A DNA stretch of 29,147 nt from positions 808,204-837,350 of the forward strand of contig CAXITT010000134.1 of NCBI GenBank assembly GCA_964033795.1. Reading direction: 5' to 3'. Position numbers and translations under genes: made by a program. Shown piece after piece: positions 510 to 26,700 of this stretch. The notes below the pieces were generated by a model that saw nothing but the letters and a program-made list of their open reading frames with translations, was not told where the DNA came from and did not search any database. Position 1 is the stretch's first letter, and each line of letters opens with the position of its first letter. The DNA comes from Lymnaea stagnalis (taxonomy: Eukaryota).

Positions 510-603
510 CTGCACAGATTTTAATGGCTGAGTGAATGGGATCCTTCCGATAGCTCCAAATTCTCAACGCCATCAAAGGTGATGGGGAAAAAAACTGGCC
601 AAT
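510..603 (-). CDS. Candidate exon IGQFFSPSPLMALRIWSYRKDPIHSAIKICA(G) (94 bp, phase 0 to 1). The gene continues beyond the window start.
   Basis: Acceptor ccattttcag|ATTGGC and donor GTGCAG|gtgatc. Only one frame is open. Degenerate WD-like FSPSPLMALRIW. Confidence 0.35.
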
Positions 604-654
604 CTGAAAATGGGTTTTTAAAAAGTTATTTTAAAGAAATATAAAATAAAATAT

Positions 655-1096
655 CATCCCCTACAGAGAATAAGATGTCATCTAGAACAGAGAATAAGAT
701 GTGGTCATCTAGTGCAGAGAATAAGATGTGGTCATCTAGTACAGAGATTAAGATGTGGTCATCTAGTACAGAGATTAAGATGTGGTCATCTAGTGCAGAG
801 AATAAGATGTGGTCATCTAGAGCAGAGAATAAGATGTGATCATCTATTACAGAGAATAAGATGTGGTCATCTAGAGCAGAGAATAAGATATGGTCATCTA
901 GAGCAGAGAATAAGATGTGGTCATCTAGTACAGAGATTAAGATGTGGTCATCTAGTGCAGAGAATAAGATGTGGTCATCTAGAGCAGAGAATAAGATGTG
1001 ATCATCTAGTACAGAGAATAAGATGTGGTCATCTAGAGCAGAGAATGAGGTGTGATCATCTAGTACAGAGAATAAGATATGGTCATCTAGAACAAA
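655..1096. repeat. Minisatellite, 30-bp unit, about 15 copies (agagaataagatgtggtcatctagtgcag).
   Basis: Perfect periodicity. The plus ORF 712..1122 is a translation of the array. Confidence 0.95.
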
Positions 1097-1245
1097 TATG
1101 TTGGTTAAGAGTACTTTTGTGATTACCCATCATTCTTTTGTTTGCTTTTTGTTGCTCAAAAACCACATTCTCTCTTACGTCATTGGCATAAAGATCTCCC
1201 ACATAAACATTTTGACCCACCAACATCATCTCCAACACCAACTTC

Positions 1246-1443
1246 ATTCTCTCACACCAACATTGACCCACACCACCAACATTGACCCACACCACCAACA
1301 TTGACCCACACCACCAACATTGACCCACACCACCAACATTGTCCCACACCACCAACATTGTCCCACACCACCAACATTGTCCCACACCACCAACATTGAT
1401 CCACACCACCAACATTGATCCACACCACCAACATTCGCCCACA
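1246..1443. repeat. Minisatellite, 21-bp unit, about 9.5 copies (caccaccaacattgacccaca).
   Basis: Direct reading. Confidence 0.95.
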
Positions 1444-1471
1444 TTATCATTCTCCAACATGGCGACAGTAC

Positions 1472-1603
1472 CTGAGTGAAGCTGATAGGATCATATTGAA
1501 AGTAATTAGTGTGGTATCTCCAGACTTTGATGGTACAGTCAGTTGAGGCAGTGATGATGGTATTTTCACAACATTCTATACCCGTGATTGCCGACTTGTG
1601 GAT
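1472..1603 (-). CDS. WD40 exon IHKSAITGIECCENTIITASTDCTIKVWRYHTNYFQYDPISFTQ (132 bp, phase 0 to 0).
   Basis: Acceptor cttgaatgacag|ATCCAC, immediately after an in-frame TGA, and donor CACTCAG|gtactg. Motif TASTDCTIKVW. Confidence 0.65.
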
Positions 1604-1705
1604 CTGTCATTCAAGATCAGTTCAAACAATTGTAGGATGCGTTGCAATACATGAAATGTTGCTCAAGGAATATGTCAGATTTGGAATTTATTATAAGAAG
1701 GATGC

Positions 1706-2172
1706 ATCTTGTGTTATAATTGGCAACTCGTGTTATAATTGGCATCTTGTGTTATAATTGCAACTCGTGTTATAATTGGCAACACGTGTTATAATTGGCA
1801 TCTTGTGTTATAATTGGCATCTTGTGTTATAATTGGCAACTCGTGTTATAATTGGCAACTCGTGTTATAATTGGCATCTTGTGTTATAATCGCAACTCGT
1901 GTTATAATCGGCATCTTGTTATAATTTGCATTTTGTGTTATAGTTGGCATCTTGTGTTATGGTTGGCATCTAGTGTTTTAATTGGCATCTAGTGTTATAA
2001 TTGGCCTCTAGTGTTATAATTGGCATCTAGTTTTATAATTGACAATCTTGTGTTATAGTCAGCATCTTGTGTTGTAATTGGCATGTTGTATTCTATTTGG
2101 CATCTTGTGTTTTAATTGGAATCTTGTGTTATAATTGGCTTCTAGTGTTATAATTGACATTTTGTGTTGTAA
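1706..2172. repeat. Minisatellite, 19-20-bp unit, about 23 copies (gtgttataattggcatctt). Distal copies are degenerate.
   Basis: Direct reading. Confidence 0.9.
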
Positions 2173-2265
2173 TTGGCAGATATTTAGAAAACTTTTCTTT
2201 TTGTATTAAATATGAAAATGGATTATATTGGTTCCATTGAATTTCTTCATTGCCTGTATAATTTG

Positions 2266-2420
2266 AGGCTGTTGACTGACCCTTACAGATGTGCACAAAT
2301 GAGACTGTCAACTGACCCCCTACACAACTGAAGCTGTCGACTGACCCTTACAGATGTGCACAACTGAGGCTGTCAACTGCCCCCCTACACAACTTAGGCT
2401 GTGGACTGACCTTTAAAACT
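2266..2420. repeat. Tandem repeat, about 43-bp unit, 3.5 copies (gaggctgtcaactgaccccctacacaact...).
   Basis: Direct reading. Confidence 0.8.
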
Positions 2421-2544
2421 TACAGATGTCTTTCCTAGTCTACAAAGACCAACAAATAGATTATACCTAAAAAGTTGGGGAAAATATTTCACTATACAAC
2501 TAGTTAATTTATAATATGAACAACAAAAATATCTAGCTTGCATG

Positions 2545-2632
2545 CAGAGTATTGATTAACTTGATGACTTTGACGTTGTTTAGGTTTAGCTTACCACCTT
2601 GATGACTATAACCTTGTTTAGGTATAGCTTAC
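2545..2632. repeat. Tandem repeat, about 38-bp unit, 2.3 copies. It abuts the exon at 2633 and its unit contains that exon's donor (cttgat|gtaagcta on the minus strand).
   Basis: Direct reading. Confidence 0.8.
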
Positions 2633-24500: not shown

Positions 24501-24980
24501 CTGAAATATTCAATAGCAAATTGTGCTGCCATAGTAGAGATGGATATCTGAAATATTTAATAAATTGTGCTGCCATAGTAGAGATGGGTATCTGAAATAT
24601 TCAATAGCAAATTGTGCTGCCATAGTAGAGATGGATATCTGAAATATTCAATAACAAATTGTGCTGCCATAGTAGAGATGGGTATCTGAAATATTCAATA
24701 GCAAATTGTACTGCCATAGTAGAGATGGATATCTAAATATTCAATAGCAAATTGTACTGCCATAGTAGAGATGGATATCTGAAATATTCAATAGCAAATT
24801 GTGCTGCTATAGTAGAGATGGATATCTGAAATATTCAATAACAAATTGTGCTGCCATAGTAGAGATGGATATCTGAAATATTCAATAGCAAATTGTGCTG
24901 ACATAGTAGAGATGGATATCTGAAATATTCAATAGCAAATTGTGCTGCCATAGTACAGATGGATATCTGAAATATTCAAT
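24501..24980. repeat. 47-bp unit, about 10 copies, with degenerate relatives extending to about 25140. Each unit contains the acceptor plus the first ~22 nt of the exon ending at 24500 (atatttcag|atatccatctctactatggcagca on the minus strand).
   Basis: Direct reading. Confidence 0.9.
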
Positions 24981-25178
24981 AACAAATTGGTACAACTATA
25001 TACACAGTTACTAGAAATATTTAATGAAAATTTGTCCTGCTGAATTAATTGTTACTGGAAATATTTAATGACAAATTGGTCTAAGTATGTACATTATTAC
25101 TGGAAATATTAAATGGCAAATTGGTCCAGCTATAAACAGTGTTACTGTAAGTTTTCAATGTATGTATCAGCTAAATAC

Positions 25179-25284
25179 CTGGCCAATATTTCCAAATTCC
25201 TTGACACAAAAGACTTGTACTGTTCCACACGGGGCAGTGAAAAAAATGAGGTCTGTTTGTCTCGATTCTTGTTGGAAGATAACA
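25179..25284 (-). CDS. Candidate exon (V)LSSNKNRDKQTSFFSLPRVEQYKSFVSRNLEILA (106 bp, phase 1 to 2).
   Basis: Acceptor ttgtaaatttccag|TGTTATC and donor GGCCAG|gtattt. Phase is compatible between the 25.9 kb exon and the exon at 24500. All three frames are open here, so the frame is not independently supported. Confidence 0.35.
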
Positions 25285-25489
25285 CTGGAAATTTACAAAC
25301 ATTATCTGTATTCAATAATTATGAGGACTTCACAAATGCAATCTCAAACGATTGATGAAAATAACATACAGTAATAGCATCACATTTACTATGCCTGACA
25401 TTAATAGAGTTTCATACACTTGTTTGAATATACATAGCATGCCACAAACTATGTCACAGACTAGCATCAACATCTATAGCTTGTCAGAG

Positions 25490-25900
25490 ACCTTCCTGAC
25501 AGTCATAACTTGTCCTAGACCATCCTGACAATCATATCATGTCATAGGCCATCCTGATAATCATATCACATCATAGACCATCCTCACAATCAGAACATGT
25601 CACAAACCATCCTAAAAATCTTATCTTGTCAGACCATCCTGACAATTATATCATGTCATAGACCATCCTGACAATTATATCATGTCAGACCATCCTGACA
25701 ATCATATCGCATCATAGACCATCCTGACAATCATATCACATCATAGACCATCCTGACAATCATATCACATCATAGACCAACCTGACAATCATATCACATC
25801 ATAGATCATCCTGACAATCATATCATGTCAGACCTTCCTGACAATCTTATCATGTCATAAATCATCCTGACAAATCTTGTCACAGAACATCCTGATCCTG
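25490..25900. repeat. Minisatellite, 29-bp unit, about 14 copies (cacatcatagaccatcctgacaatcatat).
   Basis: Direct reading. Confidence 0.9.
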
Positions 25901-25990
25901 ACAATCTGTGCTTGTCATACATTTACATAGACATTTTCTAGCATGTTAATGAAATGAAGTACCTACATACATGATAGAGCAATAGAGTAC

Positions 25991-26105
25991 CTTTAGGTGT
26001 GAAGTCATCCATAATTCCAGCAACTAGCCCCATTGAACATTTGGCTTGGATGAACTTTAAACTGCAAATTATCTTTTCTAATTCTGGGAAGTTACCAGCA
26101 CATTT
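25991..26105 (-). CDS. Candidate exon KCAGNFPELEKIICSLKFIQAKCSMGLVAGIMDDFTPK (115 bp, phase 0 to 1).
   Basis: Acceptor tattttattcccag|AAATGT and donor AAAG|gtactc. Only one frame is open. Phase chains with the neighbouring exons. Confidence 0.4.
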
Positions 26106-26164
26106 CTGGGAATAAAATATTTTGTTAGTTCCTTAGAGGATCAAGAGTTAATCATCTTTAATTA

Positions 26165-26400
26165 TGATATGTAGGCTACACGATGATTGAGAAATCATTC
26201 ATTAATCAATGTAGGTTACATAAAGTTTGAGTAATCTTTAACAGTGAATGTAAGTTACATAAAGATTGGGGAATCTTTTATTAGTGAATGTAGGCTACAT
26301 GAAGAATGGGCATATTTCATCAGTGAATATATGCTACATGAAATTGGGTAATCTTTTATTAGTGAATATAGGCTACATAAAGATTGGGTAATAGTTCATT
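26165..26400. repeat. About 57-bp unit, 4 copies (taggctacatgaagattgggtaatcttttattagtgaatg...).
   Basis: Direct reading. Confidence 0.8.
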
Positions 26401-26419
26401 TTAGGTTAAATCTATGAAT

Positions 26420-26578
26420 CATCAGAAGAATGTTAGCGTTAGTTACCAAGTGATAGAAAATAATGTTAGCGTTAGTTACCAAGTGATAGGGAAGAATGTT
26501 AGCATTAGTTACCAGGTGATAGGGAAGAATGTTGGCGTTAGTTACCAAGTGATAGGGAAGAATGTTAGCATTAGTTAC
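26420..26578. repeat. 33-bp unit, about 5 copies. Each unit contains the donor of the candidate exon at 26579 (cacttg|gtaactaatgc on the minus strand).
   Basis: Direct reading. ORFs 26396..26710(-) and 26414..26707(+) are partly artefacts of the array. Confidence 0.9.
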
Positions 26579-26700
26579 CAAGTGATAGGGAAGCTCAGTG
26601 AAAGCTCTGCCATTTTTGCTCTCCCAGGTTTCATCTTGCAGTGGGTCCGCTTGCTTCCAGAAATAACCTTCAAATATCCAAACAATTTTAAGGTCATTGT
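26579..26700 (-). CDS. Candidate upstream exon of the WD40 gene (...YNDLKIVWIFEGYFWKQADPLQDETWESKNGRAFTELPYHL). The 5' boundary is unresolved. It ends at donor CACTTG|gtaact.
   Basis: Open minus-strand frame ending at a good GT donor. It ends in phase 0, which is compatible with the next candidate exon. A 33-bp intronic array begins at this donor and duplicates it. No clear polypyrimidine acceptor was found. Confidence 0.3.

Follow-up and report, generated by a model that had tools for sequence, protein, structure and literature searches.

Results

The DNA analysed here (the window, meaning the whole stretch) comprises 29,147 nt of the Lymnaea stagnalis genome (NCBI GenBank assembly GCA_964033795.1, contig CAXITT010000134.1, positions 808,204 to 837,350 of the forward strand). 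Its minus strand carries a chain of 26 exons, running from 26667 to 466, which very probably form the 3′ part of the mollusc gene for TEP1 (telomerase protein component 1), a vault-associated STAND protein also called vault protein p240. The exons sum to 3,431 nt (1,142 codons) uninterrupted by any stop, and the chain is closed by a TAA codon at 468-466. An earlier analysis made from the letters alone, referred to below as the sequence-only reading, had placed a single multi-WD40 gene of about 27 exons between 510 and 26700. The multi-exon chain and its location were borne out, with coding sequence starting at 26667 and ending at 466, but the number of exons was one too high, as a chain of 25 intron phases gives 26 exons.

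The gene model was rebuilt without the earlier exon list. Coding cores were located by tblastn of an Elysia marginata protein (GFS23877.1, P0001) on the window; at each junction all frame-keeping GT/GC...AG pairs were then enumerated, and the score of each took in both the quality of its splice sites and the alignment with the Elysia protein. Every one of the 25 acceptors is AG, and the donors are GT in 24 cases and GC in one. The intron phases derived independently in this way, 0,1,2,0,0,2,2,0,0,0,1,0,2,0,0,0,1,0,2,0,2,2,0,0,0, are identical at all 25 positions to those originally proposed, and the boundaries given for the exons at 5661-5844 and 2633-2842 were reproduced exactly. Exons range from 67 to 212 nt (22-70 codons) and introns from 168 to 3,211 nt (mean 911). 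The GC content is 45.4% in exons versus 34.9% in introns, in a window that is AT-rich overall (~31-46% GC).

The single GC donor, that of exon 9 (19343-19345), reads CAG/gcaaga, which is the classical CAG/GCAAG context and identifies a GC-AG intron. The sole nearby GT (19351) is weak and its use would remove two conserved residues; the Elysia counterpart has an ordinary GT at the same position. For exon 23, acceptors at 5820 and 5793 would keep the frame as well, but 5844 is the best site. Exon 1 of the window begins in phase 1 and the matching Elysia exon is preceded by a phase-1 intron, so the gene extends 5′ of the window. An upstream exon was sought in 26700-29147, most of which is tandem repeats, and none was detected there. 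The segment 26752-26668 is weakly similar to the preceding Elysia exon, but was dropped as a candidate because the Elysia phase-1 intron falls exactly at the 26667 acceptor.

Lists of open reading frames (ORFs) give a misleading picture of this locus, as had been claimed: the long ORFs (238, 191, 171 aa and others) all lie within tandem repeats, and the gene itself appears as about 25 short, stop-free, WD-like coding pieces on the minus strand between ~26700 and ~470. A 26-exon gene missed by ORF lists can be recovered by careful reading of the raw sequence. A protein-family search of nine intronic ORFs gave no matches, and a likeness of the ORF at 13488-13718 to part of a hAT transposase found no confirmation. 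No tRNA genes or Rfam matches were found in the window.

The rough exon concatenation gave as its top match the telomerase protein component 1 of E. marginata, GFS23877.1 (E 3.5e-249, 53% identity, query coverage 100%). This match and the GC difference between exons and introns place the chain well outside what chance would give. The top match was followed by a few TEP1-like fragments (P0002, P0006, P0023) and then by generic WD40 proteins, mostly metagenomic or bacterial. A search with the C-terminal alignment returned only two further real TEP1 relatives (P0122 and P0123), while a homologue search with the non-WD N-terminal 177 aa, which was probably too coarse, gave no match. Pfam analysis of the spliced product identified two families specific to TEP1. 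PF25047 (Beta-prop_TEP1_2nd) reached 277.1 bits (cut-off 89) over aa 468-688, and PF25048 (Beta-prop_TEP1_C) reached 126.3 bits (cut-off 32), with positions 1-73 of its 73-position profile aligned to aa 1055-1140 of 1142. There were also matches to generic WD40 and propeller families. TEP1 had been one of four candidates put forward from the architecture, and the name of the best match and these two families single it out. The gene adds a new orthologue to a known, widely conserved animal family.

The E. marginata locus (L001, contig BMAT01003344.1), onto whose DNA the annotated protein could be mapped back exactly, was compared with the window. From the exon that matches exon 1 of the window onward it also has 26 exons, with all 25 phases identical and in the same order. 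Global alignment of the two proteins gave 55.6% identity over 1,098 residues, and the colinearity of all 26 exons with this one protein supported the proposal of a single gene. Of the 25 junctions, 23 occupy identical positions in the alignment; the other two are in gapped, divergent stretches. Directly upstream in Elysia, on the same strand, is a gene call containing TROVE, DUF4062 and AAA_16, which are N-terminal TEP1 modules. Elysia TEP1 is thus annotated in two pieces, of which GFS23877.1 is the C-terminal half; the first 45 residues of this entry are probably an annotation artefact. The two calls (L001 1-10000) are a 1,542-aa N-terminal part and a 1,228-aa WD40 part, and a transposase-like ORF (Transposase_1/DDE_3) sits between them.

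The published layout of TEP1 is TROVE, vWA, TIR-like NADase (DUF4062/TeTIR), NACHT, APAF-1-like helical domain and WD40 repeats (10.64898/2026.05.01.722283; 10.64898/2026.09.21.753143). By comparison with this layout, the window holds the helical tail (about aa 1-160) and the entire WD40 region. On the TEP1 assignment, the window must be preceded by exons that encode the RNA-binding TROVE module, the TIR-like NADase (DUF4062/TeTIR) and the NACHT ATPase.

The N-terminal part of the product has no WD repeats, as expected from the sequence-only reading, although it extends over four exons (26667-24329) and not three. These 159 aa include a match to PF17908, the APAF-1 helical domain (APAF1_C), at aa 22-119 (31.1 bits, cut-off 22.8), and Apaf-1 chains from the PDB align to aa 24-254 with 137 bits. 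The similarity ends after the first propeller, with none past aa 254. The two-propeller arrangement of APAF-1 does not describe the product, whose 17 or more repeats extend over ~980 residues; the part that would correspond to the CARD and NB-ARC modules of APAF-1 falls outside the window. Apaf-1, another of the four candidates, had been named with some reason, but, judged on these matches, the similarity is common STAND architecture, not orthology.

The claim of about 17 or more WD repeats was upheld when the spliced product was searched with WD40 hidden Markov models. Pfam WD40 gave 10 significant stretches and a profile derived from the repeats of the protein itself gave 17, at roughly one per exon in exons 5-21. 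Inspection by eye added a blade at aa 405-440 and the final blade, and the C-terminal blades are covered by PF25048. Altogether there are about 17-21 WD40 blades, among them those of the second and C-terminal β-propellers specific to TEP1. About 21 WD40 repeats are annotated in human TEP1.

A non-WD insert had also been proposed towards the C-terminus, and this was sustained in part. Pfam gave no match at E up to 1 over the 176 aa of exons 22-24. A structure model of the C-terminal fragment of the Elysia protein was of low confidence when built from a single sequence (predicted local distance difference test, pLDDT, 34) and of moderate confidence when built from four (mean pLDDT 54.7; predicted template modelling score, pTM, 0.56). 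The four-sequence model is confidently all-β on both flanks, and residues 174-303 of the fragment have no resolved fold. From residue 305 onward the fragment is modelled as strands (pLDDT around 70), including the counterpart of the latter half of exon 24, which contains the WD-like motif LFTGDALGQIFIQD; this half-exon probably does not belong to the insert. No WD signature can be recognised in the remaining stretch of about 130-170 residues, which may be either a loop or a set of degenerate blades.

The introns are rich in minisatellites. Analysis with Tandem Repeats Finder (TRF) gave ~44 arrays of unrelated units, whose periods are 16-65 bp and, in one case, 172 bp. They occupy 12,239 of 22,771 intron bases (54%), 107 of 3,431 exon bases (3%) and 47% of the window; their rarity in exons compared with introns suggests that selection excludes them from exons. 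The same TRF settings gave no arrays in the Elysia locus, which comes from an assembly that has gaps (1,300 N) and may have collapsed repeats. Arrays are also present in 26770-29147, upstream of exon 1. One of these (27662-28146), in the intron upstream of exon 1, has a 29-bp unit repeated 16.7 times at 99% identity, suggesting a very young array. Beyond the stop codon there are two small tandem repeats (42-149 and 280-364).

Nine arrays cross a splice junction and reach 1-24 nt into the exon, so that in several cases the intron carries exact copies of the real splice site (Table 1). Arrays are not enriched at junctions: nine were observed versus ~27 expected of the 51 junction-adjacent bases, given the 54% intron coverage. 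The extra donors of exon 1 (26546, 26513, 26480 and 26447) are all in frame and stop-free, and each unit would add 11 aa; some of the pseudo-donors of exons 12 (16731) and 18 (10726) are likewise in frame and stop-free and would add 18 aa and 9 aa, respectively. Use of the exon 4 pseudo-donors would lead to a stop or a frameshift. In the array across the exon 10 acceptor, AG is present only in the exon-proximal copy. At every copied junction homology favours the exon-proximal site.

Table 1 Exons of the gene and minisatellites that cross its splice junctions (a slash marks the splice boundary)
Feature	Position	Strand	Description	Basis or remark
Exon 1 in window	26579..26667	-	89 nt; YFWKQADP...ELPYHL; part of APAF-1-like helical domain	Phase-1 start
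Exon 2	25991..26105	-	115 nt; helical domain; FIQAKC motif	PF17908 match
Exon 3	25179..25284	-	106 nt; helical domain; YKSFVSRN motif	Elysia alignment
Exon 4	24329..24500	-	172 nt; LLWQQAMTEP...YMEWRNKPE; non-WD part ends	Edge minisatellites copy acceptor and donor
Exon 5	22103..22198	-	96 nt; first WD repeat	Self-derived profile
Exon 6	21565..21689	-	125 nt; WD repeat	Self-derived profile
Exon 7	20617..20766	-	150 nt; WD repeat	Self-derived profile
Exon 8	19688..19793	-	106 nt; WD repeat; 92% identity to Elysia	tblastn
Exon 9	19345..19464	-	120 nt; WD repeat; GC donor	Frame-keeping splice enumeration
Exon 10	18842..18940	-	99 nt; WD repeat; acceptor crossed by 36-bp array	
Exon 11	18347..18494	-	148 nt; WD-like blade	
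Exon 12	16785..16891	-	107 nt; weak WD repeat; donor crossed by 54-bp array	
Exon 13	16144..16301	-	158 nt; WD repeat inside TEP1 second propeller	Pfam
Exon 14	15876..15975	-	100 nt; WD repeat	Self-derived profile
Exon 15	15370..15495	-	126 nt; WD repeat	Self-derived profile
Exon 16	14681..14788	-	108 nt; WD repeat	Self-derived profile
Exon 17	14122..14269	-	148 nt; WD repeat and start of acidic loop	Self-derived profile
Exon 18	10753..10910	-	158 nt; acidic loop and end of split WD repeat; donor crossed by 27/31-bp array	
Exon 19	9249..9460	-	212 nt (longest); two WD repeats	Self-derived profile
Exon 20	8857..8923	-	67 nt (shortest); end of WD repeat	
Exon 21	8379..8503	-	125 nt; WD repeat	Self-derived profile
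Exon 22	7380..7511	-	132 nt; stretch without WD signature begins	Pfam null
Exon 23	5661..5844	-	184 nt; no WD signature	Pfam null
Exon 24	2633..2842	-	210 nt; first half without WD signature, second half propeller-blade-like	Pfam null and structure model
Exon 25	1472..1603	-	132 nt; WD repeat; TEP1 C-terminal propeller match begins	Pfam
Exon 26	466..603	-	138 nt including TAA; last blade; end aligns with Elysia TEP1 C-terminus	tblastn, Pfam
33-bp minisatellite, exon 1 donor	26425..26593		5.1 copies	Four extra donors (five total), one with a single substitution
47-bp minisatellite, exon 4 acceptor	24477..24989		11 copies	Nine more upstream tatttcag/ATATCCAT (ten total), two with one substitution
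35-bp minisatellite, exon 4 donor	23604..24341		21 copies	19 more TTAAACTT/gtgagtga keeping GT (twenty total), three with one substitution
36-bp minisatellite, exon 10 acceptor	18932..19157			AG kept in 0 of 5 intronic copies (four TG, one TT)
54-bp minisatellite, exon 12 donor	16580..16798			Three extra donor copies (four total)
27/31-bp minisatellites, exon 18 donor	10570..10764			About four extra donor copies (about five total)

Discussion

The domains encoded in the window are a helical domain and WD40 repeats, a combination common to the STAND proteins NWD1, NWD2, APAF-1 and TEP1, and the alignment of Apaf-1 chains at 137 bits could be taken to indicate an NWD1/NWD2-like or APAF-1-like paralogue in place of a TEP1 orthologue. 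Such a paralogue is very unlikely. The two TEP1-specific families exceed their cut-offs 3-4-fold, one of them exactly at the C-terminus, whereas the Apaf-1 similarity is confined to the region up to the first propeller. The sole close homologue bears the name TEP1 and lies downstream of TROVE-encoding exons, and intron positions are held in common with it along the whole length. The possibility that two adjacent WD40 genes have been joined into one is scarcely credible: the long introns (3,211, 2,818 and 2,130 nt) could in principle conceal a gene boundary, but the frame is intact through all 25 junctions, the exons follow one Elysia protein with the same phases, the one stop codon coincides with the C-terminal end of the Elysia protein and the nine intronic ORFs searched match no protein family.

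An unexpressed or decaying copy, with its frame intact by chance or its splicing disturbed by the arrays, has little probability, although the introns are saturated with minisatellites and so many exact splice-site copies could misdirect splicing. Against this, 3.4 kb of coding sequence is free of stops and frameshifts, every splice site is intact, and the contrast between introns and exons in array coverage suggests selection. There is also a direct precedent for silent pseudo-sites: in human F7 a 37-bp variable number tandem repeat (VNTR) lies across the exon 7 donor, and of the identical donors it creates, splicing uses the most upstream one alone, those downstream remaining silent (PMC1557585).

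Several points nevertheless weigh against a functional TEP1 gene with exactly this structure. A canonical AATAAA is absent from the minus strand in the 465 nt past the stop codon (1-465 of the window), which would also suit a pseudogene. Expression and the exact junctions are inferred from the DNA, notably at the identical pseudo-sites, the exon 23 acceptor and the exon 9 GC donor. The Elysia model is itself computational, and so provides conservation evidence rather than transcript evidence. As the N-terminal TEP1 modules lie beyond the window, the assignment rests on the C-terminal half of the protein, and TEP1 was set apart from NWD1, NWD2 and APAF1 through its Pfam families. Finally, the sensing and autoinhibitory role of the WD40 repeats in human TEP1, considered below, is speculation by its authors (bioRxiv 10.64898/2026.05.01.722283). 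The 3′ untranslated region may run past the window or use a variant signal.

With the gene read as the 3′ part of TEP1, a role for its WD40 region can be proposed by analogy with APAF-1. The region would be the signal-sensing, autoinhibitory part of a STAND switch, its propellers folding back on the NACHT ATPase and keeping it inactive. Binding of a signal would free NACHT, which could then oligomerise and so activate the TIR-like domain, leading to hydrolysis of NAD+. The recent demonstration that TEP1 is a TIR-like NADase built on the STAND plan gives the WD40 ‘sensor’ regions of invertebrates some comparative interest.

The origin of the copied splice sites is a separate matter. They may have been left in TEP1 by unusually active in-place creation of minisatellites in this lineage, but we consider this improbable. 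If it were true, and if pseudo-donors were used or the number of repeats in the arrays varied between individuals, length variants of the helical and WD40 (sensor) regions could result. In that case the gene would also offer, at several junctions at once, a natural test of spliceosomal choice between identical tandem sites. Given transcripts, its repeat-rich introns could be used as a natural model for the selection of splice sites. In addition, the product of this work is a clean, validated gene model that can be used in annotating the L. stagnalis genome.

Comparison with known systems places the gene as follows. The closest likeness is to Elysia TEP1, which shares the long WD40 region placed after a helical domain, both TEP1-specific propeller families and the same C-terminus; the two products differ in that the Lymnaea sequence is very divergent at ~aa 880-1010. 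Compared with animal TEP1 in general, the window covers only the C-terminal 1,142 residues. APAF-1 likewise has a PF17908 helical domain leading into WD40 propellers, which are thought to sense the signal and hold the ATPase inactive. It differs in having two propellers (~15 blades), fewer than the blades recognisable here, and it is the TEP1-specific families that match the Lymnaea product instead.

For the minisatellites the nearest parallel is the VNTR in intron 7 of human F7. In both genes the first unit includes the exon edge and identical pseudo-donors follow the authentic donor, and in both the most upstream donor is indicated, whether by homology or by experiment. Unlike F7, the Lymnaea gene has at least five such junctions with up to 20 copies of a donor, and two of its arrays span acceptors.

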